DNA of 41,735 nucleotides from Folioceros fuciformis (GCA_049999805.1 JBNGIO010006246.1:1-41735), one strand, 5' to 3'; positions 8,495 to 38,954 are shown, counted from the stretch's first letter. Made by a program: numbers and translations. The notes: a model not told the origin generated them from the letters alone.

Positions 8495-11400
8495 TCAATT
8501 CTTTTCCACAGGAAGCTGTTTCAGCCTTGCATAGATACTTTCACTCTCAGGATACCTGTTGTCCCCAACCAAAAAACTGTGCACCATTCCTTCCATGTCC
8601 GTCCACCAGCTCTGGCCGGGCTGCTTCCATGCCCCAACGTCTTTTCTCTTAGCTTGCATCTTTCGCGCGAGCTCCCACATCTGCGCGCCTGCATATATGT
8701 TGGACATCAGCACATATGCAGCAGCATCTTTCCCGTCTAGCTTCGTCGCTTCCTCAAATGCATATCGTCCAACATCCACGTTGGCCCACTTCGAACAAGC
8801 ACCCAACAGGGAGTGCCAGAGTGCAGCGTCAGCCAGCACTGGCATTGTCCTTACCAGACCTAGGGCCTCGTCCAGTTGGCCTGCACGTCCCAGGAGATCC
8901 ACCATGCATATATAGTGCTCTACAGAGGGAGTAATGCTGTAGCGTCTGCTCATAGCCTCAAAGTATCTTCGTCCCGTGTTCACTAGACCTGAATGACTGC
9001 ACGCTGTCAGTACGCTTAGGAATGTGACGCCCTCTGGCTGCATGCCATCCAGTCTCATTTTGTGAAACAAGTGCAAGACCACTTCACTTTCACCCTGCCG
9101 GGCATAGCCTGCAATCAGTGCGTTCCAGCTAGTATTGTCTTTCTCAGGCAATGCTTCAAAGACAAGCTGTGCATCAACCGTGCTCCCAGACTTGGCGTAC
9201 ATGTTTATCAGACTGATAGCTACAAGCACATCAGTTTGAAGGCCTTGTTTTTCGATCTGCATGTGAAGTTGCCTTCCCATATGCAAAGCTGCCACATTAG
9301 CACAGGCCTGCAAGAGGCACACAAATGTCACAGAATTGGGTACAACAATGCCTTCTTCTTGCATAGCCCTGTAGAGGTCAAGCGCTTCCTGCCCCATGTC
9401 CTGATGGGAATACCCTGCAATCATGGAGTTCCAGACCACCACGTCTTTCTTAACGACCCCATAGAACACATCATATGCGTCTTCCAAGCTGCCACACTTG
9501 GCATACATGTTAACCAAACTGCTGGTTACAAACGCATCAGCTTCAAGCCCACGTTCTCTTATCTGGGCGTGAAGGTGCGTCCCTTTCTCCAGAGCCGGAG
9601 TGCCCACACCTGCGCATGCCTGCAAAAGGCACACAAAGGTCACCGAAATTGGTGCCACCGAGCCTTCTTCTTGCATTGCCCTGTGAAGAGAAAGAGCTTC
9701 CTGCCCCATTCCCTCCCGAGAGTAACCTCCTATCATGGCGTTCCATGTCAGCACACTTTTCCGACTTAGTCCGTCGAACACGAACCGGGCATCCTCTAGG
9801 CTGCCACACTCTGCGTACATCTTCACCAGACTGCTGGCAACAGCTTCATCAGCTTCAAGCCCTCGCTCTCTAATTTTCGCCTGAAATTGTTTCCCCTTCT
9901 CCAAAGCTGAGGAGGAGCCCACACTTGCACATGCCTGCAGGAGGCACGCAAATGTCACAGAATCCGGTGCAATGGTGGCTTCTTCCTCCATACTGCTGTA
10001 AATGCGAAGGGCTTCGTGGCCCAGGCCCTGCTGGGAATATCCTGCAATCAGAGTGGTCCATGTCAAACCATTCTTTTGAGCGAGCCCATCAAACACAAGC
10101 TGCGCGTCTTCTAGGCTGCCACACTTGACATACATGTTCAGCAGACTGCAACCTAGAACATCATCAGCATGAAGGCCTCGCTCTCCACTCTGTCTGTGCA
10201 GCTCTTTCCCGTGCTGTAGAGCTGGTGCGCCCACACATGCACACGCCTGCAGGAGAGAAGAAAATGTCATAGCATCGGGTACAACAAGTCCTTCGTCCAT
10301 CATAACACTAAAAAGATGAAGCGCTTCCTGACCCCTGCCCTGTTGGGAATATCCTGCTATCAAAGCCGTCCACGTAACCACATCTTTTCGACCAACTCCA
10401 TCAAACACTTTCTGAGCTTCTTCCAAGCTGCCACACTTCGCATACATGTCTATCAAACTGTTGGCTACAAATCCATCAGCTTGATGTCCTTGTTCCCTAA
10501 TTCGTCTGTGAAGCTGTTTTCCCTCCTCTAGAGCCGGGTTGCCAATACTTGCGCATGCCTGCAGGAGGCACACAAATGACAGAATCCGGAACCATGCCTT
10601 CAAGTTGCATGGCCTTGTAAAGATGAAGGGCTTTCTGCCCCATGCACTGCCTGGCATATCCTGCTATCAAGGCATTCCATGTCACCACATCTTTCTCACC
10701 AAGTCCATCAAAGAGTCTTTGAGCTTCTTCCAGCCTGCCACGCTTTGCATATTCTGCAATTACCGTTGTCCACGTAGCCATATTTTTACAAGGAAGTCCA
10801 TCAAAAACGCCCTGAGCATCCTCTAGGCTGCCACACTTTGCATACATGTTTACCAGACTACAACCAACAACATCATTCACCTCAAGGTTCTGTTCTCGCA
10901 CCTGTGCATGGAGCTGTGTCCCCTTCTCCAGTGCTGGGGTACCCACACTTCCACATGCCTGCAGTAGATGCACAAACATGATGGCATCTGCTACAACAAT
11001 GCCGTCTTCTAGCATAGCTATGTACAGATCTAGAGCTCCCTGACCCATCCCCTGCTGGGAGTACCCTGCTATCAGAGCTGTCCAAGTCACAACATCCTTC
11101 TGACCAAGTCCATTGAACACTTTTTGAGCGTCTATCAGGCTGCCACATTTTGCATACATATCTACCAAATTATTGGCTACAAAGACATCATTTTCTAGCC
11201 CACATTCTCCGATATGAGCATGAAGCTGTTTTCCCTTCTCCAAAGCAGGGCTACCCACACTTGCACATGCGTGCAGGAGGGACACAAAGGTCAGGGCATT
11301 TGGGACAGAAACATTTTCTTCTCGCATAGCTTTGAAAAGCTGAAGGGCTTCCTGACCCATTCCCTGCTGCGAATATCCATCTATCAAAACAGTCCACGTC

Positions 11401-12254
11401 ACCACATCCTTTTGCACAAGTCTGTCGAAGACTTGACGAGCACCTTCCAAGCTCCCACACTTTGCATACATGTTCACCAAACTGTTGGCTACACACATGT
11501 CAGCGTCAAGTCCTTGTTCTCTAATTCGTTCGTGGAGCCGTTTTCCCGTCTCCACACTCGGAGCACCCACATTTGCACATGCCTGCAGGAGGCACACAAA
11601 TGTCACAGAATCGGGCGCAATATTCCCTTCTTGTTGCATAGCACCATAAAGATGAAGAGCTTCCTGTCCCATGCCATGCTGGGCATACCCTGCTATCATG
11701 GTATTCCACGTGACCACGTCTTTAAGTACAATGGCGTCGAATATTTCGAGCGCGTCCGCCAGGCTGGAACACTTCGCATACATGTCCACCAAGCAATTAC
11801 TGACACACAAATGAGGCTCAACGCCACTGGCCAACACAGCAGCATGCACCTGCTGTCCAGTTTCCAAGTCTGCTGCCCTTGCACAAGCCTGCAGAACTGC
11901 CACAAAGACATGGCTGTCGGGTTTCACACTTGACCAGCGCATCCGATGATACAATTGTATGGCCTGCTTAGCTTGCCCGTGCTTAACATGTGCAGAGATC
12001 ATGGAAGACCACATGAAGGCATCTGGTACGGCAACCATGGTGAACACATCCATTGCTTCGTCCAACCTGCCATGAGAACCATACATTCGCACAAGATGGT
12101 TGCACAGGAACGTATCCGATTCATATCCCGTTTCCACAGACAGAGCATGCACACGCCGACCCAGCTCCAGATCCTTGTTAACCCCACACAGCTTGAGCGT
12201 CGCGTACAACAGAGATTGCGAGACACGACAGTCTGTCTGCACCAAAATTCCCAT
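8495..12254 (-). pseudogene. PLS-class PPR protein, ~33 P/L/S motifs + E1/E2 + truncated DYW (E+; PGQSWW box); frameshifted in this assembly
   Basis: Two overlapping ORFs (10497-12254 and 8495-10657) of P-L-S triplets. The junction reads GATTCTGT--CATTTGTGTGCC versus GATTCTGTGACATTTGTGTGCC in a sister repeat (11591-11612), i.e. a 2-nt deletion at 10578/10579. C-terminus: LLGAC..AAYVLMSNIYA..KQPGQSWWTDMEGMVHSFLVGD..IYARL then stop. It could be an intact gene with a sequence error. Confidence 0.85.
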
Positions 12255-13577
12255 CGCTTCAACGGCCTCATAGAGCTAGAACCCAGTATGGTTTGCACAA
12301 ATGCAACCACACCAAACTTCTTACAGCCTCTCCGATGACCCCCAAGGAATCGCACACCATATACCCAGCAACTTCTTGACCTCGCAGGACAGCCCAGGTT
12401 GGCAGCTCTAGGGGTGTCCCCACAGGACACGCGTAGCTCCATGCCCTTGCAGCTCCGGGGCAGTGCTTCTCTGTATTGACTGCCTACTCCTGGCAAGGGA
12501 GCAGAACTTCACTCCCCACCAATTTCCCTCCCCCAGTTCCCTATACACGAAGGGATTGAATTGTTTGCCGCACAGAATGCTAAAGCAAATACCCCAGACG
12601 AGGATTTTGCTGCCAAGTGCTTTGAGTAATTCCGGGTTCTATACTCTTCACTCGCCCTTGTGAAGCCTTAGGCACGACATGACGGGTAAGGTTCGGGGCA
12701 TGAATTTCCTTTCAGCAGTCAGTCAGCAGGTACCAGGAGATTGGGAGCATGGTCCGGCACAGCTCAAGGTGCATGGCTTGTTGGCCTCCCTCACGGATTA
12801 GGTTGGCGAACCAGCTGCGACTGTGCAGAAACTAGCTGAAGGCTTTGCCATTAGCGTACAATCAACCCAGGACCTTGGTAAAAACGCGTCCTTCTCACAA
12901 GCAAACCATAATAACCAGTTGTAATCAGACGAACTGTGATGTGAACCTCGTTGTTTAAGGTCCTCGTCATGCAGAAGCTAAAAACAACACAGAAAACGTG
13001 AAGCTCTAGAGTGTGGAAGAACGGATAATGCATGGAACGATAGAAAAGGCCAACAAGGGAGGTCCAGAACTGCTGCTTCTGCAGGTTCCTAGGAGCCTTA
13101 TCCACACTCCAAGGTCTGCAACGTAAAATGAACCTCGTTCGGGCAGCACTTGTGGTCAAAAAAACCCCGCGGCTCCTGTGGCGTCGCGAGTCGTGAAAAC
13201 GGCCCGTTGCCAGCAATCCGCCGGCGCCACGTCCACTCCACTGTAATATCGGCTCAAACGCAGTCCTGGCCGGTCCAGGACCGGGAATACCAGTGACCAG
13301 CTGAACACAGCCTGCCTATAACACGCCTGCGCCTGGCCAAGCATTCTTTGATTCTCATCCATGTGCCCACGTCCCAGGGTTGTAGAAGGCACCAGGAATC
13401 CAGCGCCAAATGGAGCTGCGTTTTAATTGCACTGTGCCAATCGATCCAGGCGCATTCGGCTGTAGCAGCAGCAATAGCAACAGCTACAGCAGATTCTCCC
13501 CACAACCCACAACCCGATCACGCAGATGCCTGGACCAGCAGCAGCGGAGCTCCTCGTTTCCCACATTCCTCTAAGGC

Positions 13578-19264: not shown

Positions 19265-21012
19265 ATGGCGGGTTACCGAGTTCGGTTCTACGATGACGAC
19301 GACGACGATGACCTNNNNNNNNNNNNNNNNNNNNNNNNNNNNNNNNNNNNNNNNNNNNNNNNNNNNNNNNNNNNNNNNNNNNNNNNNNNNNNNNNNNNNN
19401 NNNNNNNNNNNNNNNNNNNNNNNNNNNNNNNNNNNNNNNNNNNNNNNNNNNNNNNNNNNNNNNNNNNNNNNNNNNNNNNNNNNNNNNNNNNNNNNNNNNN
19501 NNNNNNNNNNNNNNNNNNNNNNNNNNNNNNNNNNNNNNNNNNNNNNNNNNNNNNNNNNNNNNNNNNNNNNNNNNNNNNNNNNNNNNNNNNNNNNNNNNNN
19601 NNNNNNNNNNNNNNNNNNNNNNNNNNNNNNNNNNNNNNNNNNNNNNNNNNNNNNNNNNNNNNNNNNNNNNNNNNNNNNNNNNNNNNNNNNNNNNNNNNNN
19701 NNNNNNNNNNNNNNATTTCCAGGTGGTGAGCGGGTGGAGGGACTTGTGGGCGGCAATCCTGTTTATGCTTCACGTGGCGGCGGTGGCAGGGATGGCCATT
19801 ATTTTCGGGCTGCGGGCCCTGGGCAAGAGCAGCAGCAGGCTGGGGGGACTGGCGGGGGGAGCCCACAGGTACGACATTCTGGAGTGGGTGCCGCAGATGG
19901 GCGCGGCCGGGGCGGTGGGGCTGGTGTTCTCGCTGGTGTGGCAAACCCTGTTTCGTGTGTACATGGAGAACATGGTGGTGTTCGCGATGTGGTTCGGGGT
20001 GTTGGCCATGTTCTGCCTGGGGATCGTGCTCATCTCTACGGGCACGGCTATTGGGACAGTGGGGCTCATCTTCATCCTGTCCGCGGTGCTGCAGGCGCTC
20101 TACACGTACCGCGAGCGGCCCCGCAAGGAGTTCACCAACGACATGTTGGCCAAGCTGCTGCTCATCAAGCCCCACTACCGCTTCTCCATGTTCTTCGTCA
20201 CCTACTGCGGGCTACTGGTGGCGGCGGCGTGGCAAGGGTTGTTCATCTTCGGCGTGGCGGGCGCCATTTCCCAGAGCTACGCTGGCTACTTCGTGCTCAT
20301 CTTCATCGTCAGCCTGGCGTGGACCATGGAGGTGATCAAGAATGTGCTGAACGTGACGGTGTCAAGCGTTGTGGCCATCTACTACTTCCAGGAGAATTGC
20401 ATGCCGCGGGGGCCGGCCCGGCACGCGCTGCTGCGGGCCTGTTCCACCTCCCTCGGCAGCGTATGTTTAGGATCAATGTTCGTGGCGCCCATCGGCGCCC
20501 TGCGCATTGTGGTGCGCGCCGTGAGCAGCTCGCAGGGCGGCCGCGAGTTTCCCTTCTCCTGCTGCTCCTGCCTGGACGCAGGGCTGCAGTGGCTCTCCCG
20601 GTACTTCAACAAGTGGGCCTTCGTGCACGTGGCCATCTACGGCAAGAGCTTCGTCTGGGCTGCGCGCAGCACTTGGGACATGGTGAAGCAACAGGGGGTG
20701 CAGCCGCTGCTGGAGGACGATCTCACCGACAATGTCTTTTTCGTGGGCTCATTCGCCGGGGGTTCTCTATCCGCGATAGTGGGTGCTAGCTGGGAGTGGG
20801 CCACGCACAAGAATTTCACTGTCTCTGTAGCCGTGATCTCCTTCTTTTTGGGCTACTTCTTCACATACATTTCCGTGGTGGTATACCAAAGCGGCATAGC
20901 TGCCATTTATGTGTGCTACGCCGAGGACCCCGAGACTTTGCGACGACACGACCAAGGGACCTTCGGCCGGATGCAGGAGCGCCTCAATCACCTCAAGCCT
21001 CAAGTGTCCTGA
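19265..21012 (+). CDS. Plasma-membrane choline transporter-like (CTL/PNS1 family) protein, 5' part interrupted by assembly gap
   Basis: The 19723-21012 exon (acceptor TTCCAG at 19722) is multi-TM with WRDLWAAILF, SLAWTMEVIKNV, TSLGSVCLGS, YFNKWAFVHVAIYGKSFVWAAR, YVCYAEDP. A probable first exon MAGYRVRFYDDDD starts at 19265, before the gap. Confidence 0.85.
19315..19714. other. Assembly gap (400 N)
   Basis: Run of N. Confidence 1.
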
Positions 21013-33440: not shown

Positions 33441-34700
33441 CATTGAGAGCAGTTTGGCGGACCTCATGTCAATCAGCATGCACTGGTCAGAAAATTCAAA
33501 AACATATAAATAATCCAAAAATCCCATTCTACTACAAAATATGTTTTTTCTGTACTCTCATGAGCTTTGTGATATTTTTGAAGATAGTTTGTAAAGATTT
33601 CAACTCTTTTAACACACCTTTTGTAGAACAAACATGAGCTCATTTTAGCTAGTCGATGAGTTCATCTTTCTTCTTGTGGTCTAAACTATAAATAAAATAA
33701 AATAAGAATATTTATCATGTTTCATATCTTGAAATGTTTAGCTTAAGTGTAATTTTAACTGTAAACAATACCCATCTTATTCTAGAATGACACGCGAATC
33801 AAGAACATAATATTTTTTCAAGTATAAAAGATAAATTTAATGATGCCTAAATTTAATAAAAATCTAAGAATAAAAGTATTGTTAGGTTTAGTGAGTGAAA
33901 GATTTGTTTGCACACTAGAATCTAAGCATGTTGTATGAAAATCCTAAATATCTATTTTTCGTCAAACTTGATAATGATCTTGTTAATCTTGTAAATTTTA
34001 AAATCAAATATATTTATAGTAACATAAAGAAACCATAAACTCTTTAAAATAGCCATATTTTGGAAGAATTTTTTAGATGTAGGAAAGAGCTCTAAGTGGA
34101 AAAACAGGTTTCTTCTTCCCCGAACATTGTTGCTCATATGAGCATCATATTCTCCTAATTCTCCAAGCAAGACATCTTGAAAACTTCACCAGAGCTTACC
34201 TTACAAGTCATGGTGCTTAACGTAAGCTTCCTTTCTTAAGGCTGTTGTTGACAAGAGCATCTTATTATGATTACGTTAACCAATACTTAATGTAGTCAAA
34301 GTGCCGTGACAAGCTATGCAATGCAAATTTCGAGATAACTTGTCATCTTCACGGCATGTAATATCAAAAGATTATTTTCTATTATTGAAAGAGAGATTAA
34401 AAGTCCTATCTACTCCAAAGATGGGAGGAACAACTCAATTAGGGCCAAACCCAAAAAGGCATTACTACTAGTGCCCCCTTCAAACATCATTCTCAAAAAC
34501 TACCTACTACTCCCAAAATATCACAATGTGTAATATGTAAAGGTTGCGGCGAATAGTCTTTTTGTTCGTTCCCATCGTGACACAACGGGAGTAGTGGGTA
34601 AGGGGATTGCTCTGCAAGGTAGTGATCTCTTTGAATGAATATGGATTGCCCTTCTAGTGATGGTGTTGGCCAATGCAAATTTCAAGCCAAGATAAAAACT

Positions 34701-34862: not shown

Positions 34863-36239
34863 ACATAGGGCATGCAACATAACACTTTGTAGTAAGTGAT
34901 CTCTTTGTTTTTGGTAAGGGCGAGCTTGAGGATAAACAAGGAATGGGATATATAATCATGAAAACTAACTACTCTAAGCAAAGGCAAAGAACAATAAGAA
35001 AAACGGGTCTGGACTACAGTTCCCCAGAGAGAATGTTCAGAAGTTTCCATAGCCGCCAAGTGCAAAATACGTTATCTCTACGTACATATGTATTTAAATT
35101 TATCCTCATCGTTGGCAGATACATACACAGGGAGATATGTATGTGAAGTGAGTCATGATTCGTATGCTGTAAAACGCTTCCGCCAACTAAGGCTCGTACG
35201 GGCAGCACAAAACATGTGGCAGTGCGCGATACAGTAGTCAAATCATAAAAGCCGGCCCGCTGGAGAGAGACTTTGCAGGCTGCAAGCCGGATGCTTTTTC
35301 TTTCAGCAGCTTCCATTCCTTCAACTCCTGTCGGACGCAACGCCAGCGGTAGCACTGACGCGGTCTGTCTGGGATACATTGACGGGCTCCATAAAAGCCC
35401 GTTTCACATGTCCCAGCTATCGATGGTTCCACCGCTGCGTGGATGGAGCTCATTCGGCGCCAGGGTATCTGGATCTTCCTCCCCCGTAGTAACGTGCTTG
35501 ACGTGGGAGTGAAATGCCTGGTTTGTTCTCGGGGCGCACATGGGTGGACGGCCCCGCGGACTAGTGTTCATCATTTGTACCGACACCGCAGAGGAAATGA
35601 TGCGGGTGGACCCTCCGCGCCCGTGCTCCGAATTGTTAGGTCATGGTCTTGCTCCGTTTGGTCATTGAGATCATGTGTTTAGCGGAAATGGGACAAGCTC
35701 GCTGGAATGAAGCGTCACTTGCTGATGCCGCCTCTCTTTGACTTCGCATTTTAAGGTGGCAGGAAGAAGTTAGATGAATGCGACGAATGTGAGCAGATCT
35801 GAGAAAATGGACTGTCGGAGGTCTCGGCAATGACGATGGTGGCCTTGCTACGCGGTTATGTTCACAAACCTCTTCAGAATACACATCAAAAATCATGGAA
35901 CTGGTGATGAATCTGTAATGGAAATGGAAACCTGACACTCTGCTGTATGATCTACAAATTCCCTAAGGTACTGAAGGACAGGTATAAGCGCGCTCTGGCA
36001 GGTGGTAACCTTCGCCGGTTTGTTCGGGGATGCAATGTACAGCAAGGGGAACACCGGACTTCATACACAGCTAGACGGCAATTCTCGCCGCTTCGAAAAA
36101 AAATCTCCACACCTGGAGCATGCCTGAATCTGAGGCTAATCCGGGATGAGGTACACACTAAGGACTCCCTCCAGCAGTGTAGTCTGTAGAGAGTTTGAAA
36201 GCCGAAGTCGAGGGTTCGGAGCGATAGGGATGGCCGGTC

Positions 36240-36781
36240 TCAATACCCTTGGTACACATAATCGGTGTGAAATCCGGAACCCTGGGACGGCGCAGCTGGC
36301 GGTGGTGGTGAAGGCGGTGGCGAAGTCGCTTCTGAGGAAGGTTTTGCTTCCGCCAGACTTCGCCTCTCTTGGCTGGATGATCTCATACCCGTCTCGACCT
36401 CAGGCTCCTGTCCACAAAAGCATGGATTCCGGCAGGTAAGTCAGCTCCCACGTCGCACACACTGTGAAAGAAAACCCGATCCGTCTGGCTGCGGATGCAG
36501 GGGGGAAGAGAAAGAGTGTAGAAGCTTACAAACTTATACTCGCTGACGAGGCTCAACAAATTCCTGCTTCCAGCTTGCGCGGATGACAGCACGAGAGCTG
36601 CAGAATCAACACATCAGAGCACGGGTGAGGAAGCGCACGGCAGCGTTTATGGAAAACTGTGCTGAATGTGAGGTGAAATGTGGTGAGCACCTGCTTCCGT
36701 GAGAGGACGGATGCTCTGGGCTGAGACATGAAGCAGGGCGAAGCAGAGGAGCAGAAGCCAGGCTCTGGCGAGACAAGCCAT
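36240..36781 (-). CDS. Secreted small-peptide precursor, phytosulfokine (PSK)-like, 108 aa, 3 exons
   Basis: Exons 36781-36691, 36597-36530 and 36407-36240 with GT-AG introns of 93 and 122 nt splice in frame to MACLARAWLLLLCFALLHVSAQSIRPLTEAALVLSSAQAGSRNLLSLVSEYKFEPEVETGMRSSSQERRSLAEAKPSSEATSPPPSPPPPAAPSQGSGFHTDYVYQGY*. It has a hydrophobic signal peptide, an RRSL basic motif and a C-terminal HTDYxY motif. Confidence 0.72.
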
Positions 36782-38954
36782 TTCCGAAAATTGTTGAGAC
36801 TTCTCGCGGTCGCAAATAGCTCAGTCCCGAACAAATGACCAGCAGCAGGGTTCGAGTGTAAACAGACACTCCAGGGAGGTTGCACTGTGGGAGGACTCTG
36901 TGCCGGCTTGAAGCACAACCTTGTCCTCACCTTCCTGCCCTCTAGCTCTCTTGACGCACAGTCACGAGTTAGATAGTGCATCTGACAGGGCCATGGTTGA
37001 CCTTTGTAGGTGCAATAGAGAGAAGGAGGCCGGCCTCGGTGGAGCTGCACGAGTAGACGTGAGAGGAAATGATGAGAGACCGCGGCGGCTCTGGTGCAGG
37101 TTTCCAGGTATAGGGGATGTAGCTGCAGCGGTGGTCTGGAGAGAGATGGTATCGCAATGAAAATAAAATCCAGCATTGGGGCCAGGGAGTACATACAGTA
37201 CTGTGGAGGAGTGTTGTTGGCTCTTGCCCCCTCATTGGCTGCAATGCGGCCACAAGGCAGATAGATAAGAGGAAGTGATCCACGATTTGTTTCCTTACCG
37301 AACAAGTTGCAACAACATGGTTCGAAGCATAAAAGGCACTTGGGTCTTGGGAATTGGAGCAGCAAGCGTCCGAGGCTGGGGCCCTGGATGAGCAGGACAA
37401 CACTGTTTGCAGCTTTCTGCTAGGGGCAGGTTAAGGTCAAATGAGAGAGAGGCAGAACCTGCCTGCGTCACTCCTTCCCTCCGGCTTTCGTTCGTGCCTT
37501 TTCACGTCTAGATTATATGCTACAGACTTGTCTCTGTGAGCCACGCCATCTGCCGTCTGTCCAGCTGACAATGCAAAGGAGAATGGGGCATCCCCAGCTG
37601 TACTGCCTGTCCTTCCGGCTTGCTGCAGGGAAGCAGCAGCAGGAGTGCTTGATGGTGGGCTGATGCAACGGGGTAGCTTGGCTGGGACATTGTTACTATA
37701 CCAATGGGACGGAGTTGGTCATCCGAAGAGTGAGGGCAAGTGCAGTGCAGCTCTCGCACAAAGACGTCTTTATGGCTCGTGCATGCAGGGGCCACGGAAA
37801 CGAAGAGAAGGCAAAAATAGAGAGAGGTAGCTACACCTGTTATGGTCGTTGAGTGTCCCGGGCAACTTGGTTGCATCGCGGACACGCATTAACGGCGGTT
37901 TCCAATGCCATGGCGGGCCTCGAGTCGGCAGCATTCCTTTCTGCCAGCAATATATCCCCGCGTGTCACCACGAGGAGCCAGCTGACGTGAAAAAATAGGC
38001 AACAGCCGCAGAAAATTGCCAACATCTGGACGGGACAAGATTGGAGATGCTGGGCCCGCCTTCCACCGCTCTTGAAAGCTGGACACATGTCGGTACCCCA
38101 GGCAGACGCTCGTTATCAGGGCCGTTATGTATGGTGTAGGTCAAGGTGTATGGAGCTTGGCTCCCAGCCCTCCTCGCCGAGTCGCCGGGCCCGGACACCT
38201 CTCCTTCACCTACAAATTGTTCTAGATGATGAGCTTTTCAATGAACTTGAACTCCTGTTATGAATAATCACTCTGCATATTTATCAGATAGAGGTTCACA
38301 CCGTGGTGTCTAATCCATAGGTGTCTTGCCTCGTCGTGTTGATACGACACTCCTCAGTGGAGACCAAAGCTGAGGAGAGATGCTTGCATCCGTTGGTTGG
38401 TGATCGAGGGACGGCAGCTTAGCTTCATGTTTTTGTTACCGAATTCGAAGACTCTGTAGATGTATACCCAACCCTTGTGGACTCAAAGTATACCTACATC
38501 AATTGCCGGATTAGGAAACCCCAGAGCATGTAATCCAAAGACACTGCTAGGCGATCTCGCAGCACAACAGGCCCAAACCGTCCAGAGACTCCATCCAAGC
38601 ACTAAGCCGTGAAAGTTGGGATGTGTGCACCCCATCCGCCATGAAGAACGGAGAAAAATACCCCATCCGAGCACCTTGTCCGTCTGATCACCGTGGGTTT
38701 TAGGGAAGGCATGTTTGGATGCCATTCCAAGGGAGGACAATGTGTAGGCTTCTTGCCGCTAGCACGACTCGGTATGCAGTCACGACGGAGGCACCTTCCG
38801 GCCAACCCTTTCATCACCGTGGCCGGCTTGCCAAACTATTGGAAACTTGACTACCTACCTCGATTCGTGTTTAAGCTTGCGGCTGGCTGTACTGCACGTC
38901 TCAGGCCTTGTTTGCAAGGTGAGGTTTAGGGCTTTGTTTAATTGGAGTCCAGCG

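Follow-up and report, generated by a model that had tools for sequence, protein, structure and literature searches.

A small spliced gene from a non-seed land plant as a candidate precursor of a divergent phytosulfokine-type peptide

Phytosulfokine precursors inside and outside seed plants

Phytosulfokine (PSK) precursors are described, in the available portions of PMC13081851, as proteins of 80-120 aa with a signal, a variable region and a C-terminal motif. According to the same portions, variation among the five PSK types described from plants is confined to positions 2 and 5, with Thr4 constant; PSK-gamma and PSK-epsilon of plants have Val at position 2, and a residue other than Thr at position 4 is known from nematode PSK mimics alone. 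The Asp preceding Tyr is given as the main determinant of sulfation in the excerpted text of 10.1101/2025.11.07.687175. Precursor cleavage is documented in the excerpted text of PMC2667306, which reports that AtSBT1.1 cuts proAtPSK4 within RRSLVLHTDY, between RRSLVL and HTDY, that HTD is highly conserved among PSKs, and that, in PSKs, di-basic residues precede the mature peptide by 8-10 positions and P3 is Leu. The profile for the family has the accession PF06404 (PMC11253845, in its available part).

Figure 6E of the supplement to Furumizu et al. 2021, in the portion available, contains seven entries, five of them from seed plants (including Amborella, Elaeis, Picea and Zea). All five seed-plant precursors carry a Cys pair ending in EEC, the stretch x-x-[RK][RK]-T-[LV]-x-A-H-x-D-YIYTQ and a tail of 4-6 residues; that the Cys pair and EEC block would be a defining feature of PSK is our own reading of these five sequences. 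The putative bryophyte PSKs given in the same source are Mp3g14960 (YIYTSQ, 257 aa) and Pp3c7_6940 (YIYTQ, 185 aa). As presented there, their N-termini are not hydrophobic, Ser or Phe rather than Asp stands before the motif, and the Marchantia motif lies far from the C-terminus. No hornwort entry appears in that portion of Figure 6E, and in the searchable text of the supplement the string 'yvyq' occurs 0 times, with 'dyvy' found inside receptor-kinase alignments in two passages.

The origin of PSK signalling is unsettled. A 2026 survey, in its available part, places the emergence of PSK in gymnosperms, and a moss study (10.1101/2025.11.07.687175, in excerpt) notes that the bryophyte orthologues are without Asp-Tyr, casting doubt on a sulfated moss PSK. 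According to the same excerpt, AtPSK1 peptide given to a moss tpst mutant brought no rescue; PSK signalling in plants of the bryophyte grade is thus itself a hypothesis. In the full text searched on phytosulfokine in hornworts, Anthoceros, bryophytes, Selaginella and ferns, no report of a hornwort PSK was found.

Gene structure, transcription and genomic setting

The window, that is, the whole stretch of DNA analysed (41,735 nt), contains on its minus strand a small, unmarked nuclear gene of three exons, and this gene is real, transcribed and spliced. The coding part of exon 1 (36691..36781, 91 nt) starts with the ATG at 36781-36779 and comprises 30 codons plus 1 nt, ending in a phase-1 donor. 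It is followed, all on the minus strand, by intron 1 (36598..36690, 93 nt, GTGCTC..TGCAG), exon 2 (36530..36597, 68 nt), intron 2 (36408..36529, 122 nt, GTAAGC..GACAG, phase 0) and the coding part of exon 3 (36240..36407, 168 nt), which holds residues 54-108 and the TGA stop at 36242-36240. The spliced coding sequence totals 327 nt, equal to 108 codons and a stop, with introns in phases 1 and 0. When read unspliced, the frame reaches a stop 14 codons into intron 1, and the open reading needs both splices. An in-frame stop lies 42 nt 5' of the ATG and therefore bars a longer N-terminus within exon 1.

Splicing was assessed with a 2017 sequencing run (X3), whose sample and study are distinct from those of the two DNA runs that may underlie the assembly, and which contains 72% of the sampled words. 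The RNA label of X3 is itself a guess; the run was taken as cDNA-like from intron skipping, because its contig bridges both introns. This contig, 1314 nt long, matched the window with 0 mismatches and covered 36026-36406, 36529/30-36597 and 36691-37400, plus 154 letters beyond. At the two joints of the contig, 122 and 93 nt are left out, and the skipped segments have ends CT..AC on the plus strand, which correspond to GT..AG on the minus strand; the intron-2 joint was given as 36406/36529, with the cut at +1. The DNA run X1 was collinear over 35700-37400 with no joint, and intron 1 was present in it. The stop codon at 36242-36240 showed 0 differences between two independent data sets. The depth of the X3 contig (596) is no measure of expression level, and X5 and X6, runs of other organisms of the same study, gave 0 contigs matching at 80% likeness, a result that carries no weight either way. 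The initial annotation had proposed three minus-strand exons with GT-AG introns, joined in frame in phases 1 and 0 into a 108-aa product, and these coordinates proved exact to the base; the check by RNA data that it had suggested for the junctions 36691/36597 and 36530/36407 found the X3 contig joining at both.

At the 3' side, the untranslated region (35928..36239, minus strand) extends to the limit of X3 contig cover, and the true transcript end may differ from it. No AATAAA-like words were found in this region and no TATA-like words in the leader. A 173-nt X3 contig covers 35928-36055 and then, after 15 other letters, returns onto 36026-36055; this resembles a fold-back made in assembly close to the low-coordinate limit of cover. 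At the 5' side, the stretch 36782..37400 (minus strand) belongs to the same X3 contig as the coding exons and may be a 5' leader, an alternative start, or an overlapping or merged transcript. The contig reaches at least 773 nt 5' of the ATG, a distance that includes 8 ATGs if it is collinear to 37554, and upstream ORFs of 88 and 182 codons in the same contig had codon log-odds of -5.4 and -0.9. Because the contigs carry no strand information and may fuse transcripts that overlap, the long leader is only putative. A Pfam search of three nearby ORFs (37520-37888, 35014-35403 and 36969-37235) matched no family, so no hidden neighbour accounts for the long X3 contig.

The proposed frame has coding-like codon usage. 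With codon log-odds trained on seven clearly coding stretches within the window, it scored +11.6 bits, against -13.2 and -7.8 when the same sequence was read in either alternative frame, and it outscored 88 of the 100 window ORFs of at least 100 codons, a set in which the seven training stretches also lie. A search of 35700-37800 against Rfam gave no family at threshold; the sole match was Xist_exon1, whose 17 bits fell short of its gathering score of 50. No tRNAs were found, and 35700-38900 contained no meaningful repeats.

The neighbouring ORFs encode a xyloglucan fucosyltransferase (Pfam XG_FTase, E 5.4e-82), a PLS/E-motif PPR protein and an ABC-2 transporter domain; the small gene is flanked by XG_FTase and a methyltransferase-like neighbour. 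In the Atlas, the fucosyltransferase grouped with streptophyte clusters. Within the best 120 of 121 proteins at E<=1e-30, its top match showed 64% identity. Among the matches listed, the nearest named relatives were from a lycophyte (43-49%), liverworts (44-47%) and Selaginella (45%), followed by Sphagnum (43-44%), a fern (44%), Physcomitrium (40%) and angiosperms (27-36%). These relatives indicate a non-seed land plant as the source of the window, one for which no close relative has been annotated; a hornwort would be compatible with them. The initial annotation, which had suggested a non-seed plant, agrees with a fucosyltransferase closest to non-seed relatives among the matches listed.

Three further observations concern the window at large. 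At 8495-12275 (minus strand), two long PLS-class PPR ORFs (592 and 722 aa), read in different frames, share 167 nt, and the PPR repeat pattern runs across the overlap if the frame shifts near 10560-10600; the two appear to form a single PPR gene of ~1,290 aa, interrupted by a frameshift, by an error in sequencing or by an intron of very small size. A 400-N assembly gap (19315-19714) lies inside a long plus-strand ORF (19312-21012). The segment 32001-36000, directly downstream of the small gene, is AT-richer (GC 0.385-0.434, compared with 0.50 for the window) and includes the ORF 35014-35403, which is without a Pfam match.

Predicted signal peptide, motifs and family tests

The N-terminus of the product resembles a secretory signal. 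Residues 1-21 (36719..36781, minus strand) were predicted as a signal peptide, with the cut after residue 21, by a simple purpose-made n/h/c heuristic rather than by SignalP. The features behind this call were a single Arg within residues 1-6, a hydrophobic core of 12 uncharged residues and small residues in positions -3 and -1. In a scan of the window in six frames, the heuristic passed just 3 of the 596 ATG-ORFs with 30 aa or more, the product included; the other two start at the minus-strand ATGs 31159 and 30710. The clean N-terminal signal peptide of the initial annotation is thus also predicted by this heuristic, and the motifs that the annotation had named (RPL, RNLL, ERRSL and FHTDYVYQGY) all occur in the spliced product.

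Three elements stand out downstream of the predicted signal, all encoded on the minus strand. RRSL (residues 68-71, 36354..36365) is a di-basic putative subtilase motif and is identical to the opening RRSL of the AtPSK4 site. SPPPSPPPP (residues 82-90, 36297..36323) is an extensin-type pair of Ser-Pro3 and Ser-Pro4 and a likely site of hydroxyproline formation and arabinosylation. HTDYVYQGY (residues 100-108, 36243..36269) combines HTD, the Asp102-Tyr103 sulfation signature, the YVY core and a QGY end. The spacer between RRSLA and HTD is Ser/Pro-rich, 27 residues long, and contains SPPPSPPPP. The 87-residue pro-region comprises 16 Ser, 11 Pro and 9 Ala, and Cys is confined to residues 3 and 13, both inside the signal peptide.

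Chance expectations for these motifs, which are post hoc statistics on a single locus, were estimated by shuffling. DY[IV]Y occurred once in the six frames of the window, compared with 0.275 per mononucleotide shuffle; at most 5 residues from a stop, 0.085 were expected, and H.DY[IV]Y appeared in 0 of 200 shuffles of the window. When the pro-region was shuffled 200,000 times with its composition preserved, 0.0085% of the shuffles contained DY[IV]Y and 0.57% contained RR[ST]L, and none had H.DY[IV]Y close to the C-terminus. A scan of the window for paralogues in six frames (DY[IVL]Y, Y[IV]Y[TQ][QNG] and H.DY[IV]Y) returned the product itself and one DYLY at 33515, outside notable ORFs.

Homology searches gave no family assignment. 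The Pfam PSK profile (PF06404), which the initial annotation had named as a check, did not match at E<=10 when searched with residues 54-108 or with residues 61-108, although the part searched includes the entire conserved block; these searches returned Dscam_C alone (E 0.1 and 0.2), read as noise. A word-based protein search gave 618 word-sharing candidates among longer proteins, 0 of them at E<=10, and no relative among proteins of 30-97 aa. phmmer over 1,835,955,588 representatives produced one match (E 3.3e-4), to a 939-aa protein over the Ser/Pro-rich query residues 20-50, which we read as low-complexity. The exon 3 product had no usable match in the ESM Atlas. Judged by these comparisons, nothing past a short motif is common to the product and the proteins in the libraries searched.

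When set against the PSK precursor features one by one, the product agreed in part. It has 108 aa, a predicted N-terminal signal, a variable region and a C-terminal motif (100-108), as in the ~80-120-aa layout, and Asp stands just before the first Tyr within an H-x-D tripeptide (HTD 100-102, Tyr103), the same HTDY that follows the SBT1.1 cut in AtPSK4. The core Y-[IV]-Y-T-[QN] (in AtPSK6 also with H) is present as far as YVY, with Gln at position 4 and Gly at position 5. The di-basic RR (68-69) lies 34 residues before Tyr103, where 8-10 would be usual, and His is preceded by S-G-F, which puts no Leu at P3. The Cys pair and the acidic EEC block before the di-basic site are absent. The assignment to a PSK family or a PSK-related peptide made by the initial annotation accordingly stands for length, layout, C-terminal position, HTD, Asp-Tyr, the YVY core and RRSL, and falls short on the profile, Thr4/Gln5, di-basic spacing and the Cys pair. 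Its description of the motif as non-canonical holds, since Gln replaces Thr4 and Gly occupies position 5 relative to the described PSK variants.

Alternative readings and comparison with known systems

On the features of the product, we consider there to be an even chance that the gene encodes a divergent PSK-type precursor of a tyrosine-sulfated peptide. Unlikely, but the most substantial of the alternatives, is a secreted small protein unrelated to PSK, either a short extensin-like, hydroxyproline-rich wall protein or another lineage-specific secreted peptide. As an extensin-like protein, it would be glycosylated at SPPPSPPPP, and YVY, with Tyr108, would serve peroxidase-mediated isodityrosine cross-linking rather than sulfation. 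The product does pass the BIO OHIO short-EXT screen, which asks for at least two SPPP motifs and treats YXY as optional, as given in the available text of PMC4769139, with SPPP at 82, SPPPP at 86, a length below 200 aa, a predicted signal and one YXY; its pro-region is rich in Ser, Pro and Ala, and the missing PSK profile match and Thr4 point the same way. However, an extensin domain consists of repeated SPn making up the protein, whereas here there are just two SPn motifs, adjacent to each other, with 11 Pro in 87 residues and no extensin repeat over most of the protein. Classical extensins average 5.7-27.5 YXY with SPn repeated throughout (same source, in part), against a single YXY here, which lies 12 residues past SPPPP and does not adjoin it. 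The one moss surveyed in that text had no classical extensins, though short ones were found. Moreover, wall cross-linking leaves the HTD-Asp context, RRSL and the extreme C-terminal place of the motif unexplained.

We regard it as slightly less probable still that the 108-codon frame is untranslated or non-functional, the RNA being a long non-coding or other transcript and the signal and motif coincidental. The long X3 contig bears on this directly: if the upstream stretch, 773 nt or more in length and containing 8 ATGs as well as the ORFs of 88 and 182 codons, is one RNA with the gene, its leader would hinder translation, which also counts against the PSK-type reading. Long ORFs are common in the window (100 of at least 100 codons in 41.7 kb), no homologue was found in the libraries searched, and a motif-driven scan over many windows carries a look-elsewhere effect. 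Against this, the 108-codon frame alone scored positive (+11.6 bits) while both upstream ORFs scored negative, and its openness depends on both splices. A signal-like start (3/596) together with DY[IV]Y (0.0085% of shuffles) is jointly very improbable by chance. Furthermore, Rfam gave no family at threshold, and the leader itself is putative, as the contigs are unstranded and possibly merged. A sulfated DY-peptide precursor of another known class (PSY, RGF/GLV/CLEL or CIF/TWS1) is very improbable. Asp-Tyr and a Pro-rich precursor are common to these families and our product, but the Pro-rich part lies upstream of DY in our product, not downstream, and mature PSY, RGF and CIF peptides begin at DY and span 13-21 residues (PMC8462819), so these types were excluded by the just six residues between Asp102 and the stop. 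A burpitide-type Tyr-crosslinked peptide was likewise rejected, with no BURP context and no repeated core.

Under the PSK-type reading, we infer secretion, sulfation, processing and receptor pairing as follows. The precursor would enter the ER co-translationally and lose residues 1-21. In the Golgi, TPST would sulfate Tyr103, directed by Asp102, and probably Tyr105 too, as in PSK; the SPPPSPPPP spacer would probably receive hydroxyl groups and arabinose. Subtilases may recognise RRSL, the setting of HTD or both and cleave just before HTD, and N-terminal trimming would follow, the route described for AtPSK4. A peptide of 4-6 residues with a sulfated Y-V-Y core (YVYQ, YVYQG or YVYQGY) would be freed into the apoplast, a length set by the just six residues after Asp, and the released peptide would act on a PSKR-type LRR receptor kinase.

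The gene is a good candidate, by its predicted features, for the PSK growth-peptide family outside seed plants. Shared ancestry with seed-plant PSK, as opposed to a merely similar mode of action, is a tentative proposition that we place somewhat below an even chance. We are more doubtful, though we think it possible, that this is the first non-seed PSK precursor with the full secretion and sulfation signature (predicted signal, RRSL, HTD and Asp-Tyr), with a mature peptide, sulfated YVYQG or YVYQGY and perhaps bearing a third Tyr, that departs at Thr4. A transcribed non-seed gene with a predicted signal and an intact HTD-Asp-Tyr-Val-Tyr terminus provides a concrete, synthesisable peptide for testing. 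If the reading is right, PSK signalling would be older than seed plants, contrary to the 2026 survey that, in its available part, starts from gymnosperms; a co-evolved receptor pocket would be implied in this lineage; and a 27-residue Hyp-type spacer inside the usually contiguous RR-x-L-x-A-H-x-D would represent a new precursor architecture. Because the conserved part spans just ~six residues, such genes are missed by ORF-based annotation and by profile searches.

Compared with seed-plant PSK, the gene product shares a secreted-type precursor of ~80-120 aa, a C-terminal motif, HTD before Tyr, Tyr-aliphatic-Tyr, RR-[ST]-L and a short tail. It differs in having no profile match and no Cys pair or EEC, in Gln4 and Gly5, in the 27-residue spacer, in just 3 residues after YVY and in a gene with two introns. 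The nematode PSK-like peptides theta (DYIYDN) and omega (DYVYDN), described in the available portions of the 2026 preprint PMC13081851, have the DY[IV]Y core and a non-Thr position 4, as does our product; unlike this plant product, they are animal effectors that mimic host PSK. The putative bryophyte PSKs share the Tyr-Ile/Val-Tyr core with it, and both they and our product are PSK candidates outside seed plants. At positions 4-5, our product fits PSK worse than the moss YIYTQ, whereas it fits the precursor layout better than either bryophyte protein, with its signal-like start, its length, the HTD-Asp context and a terminal motif. As far as can be judged from the proteins compared, the product of this gene is a stronger candidate than the putative PSKs published for bryophytes.
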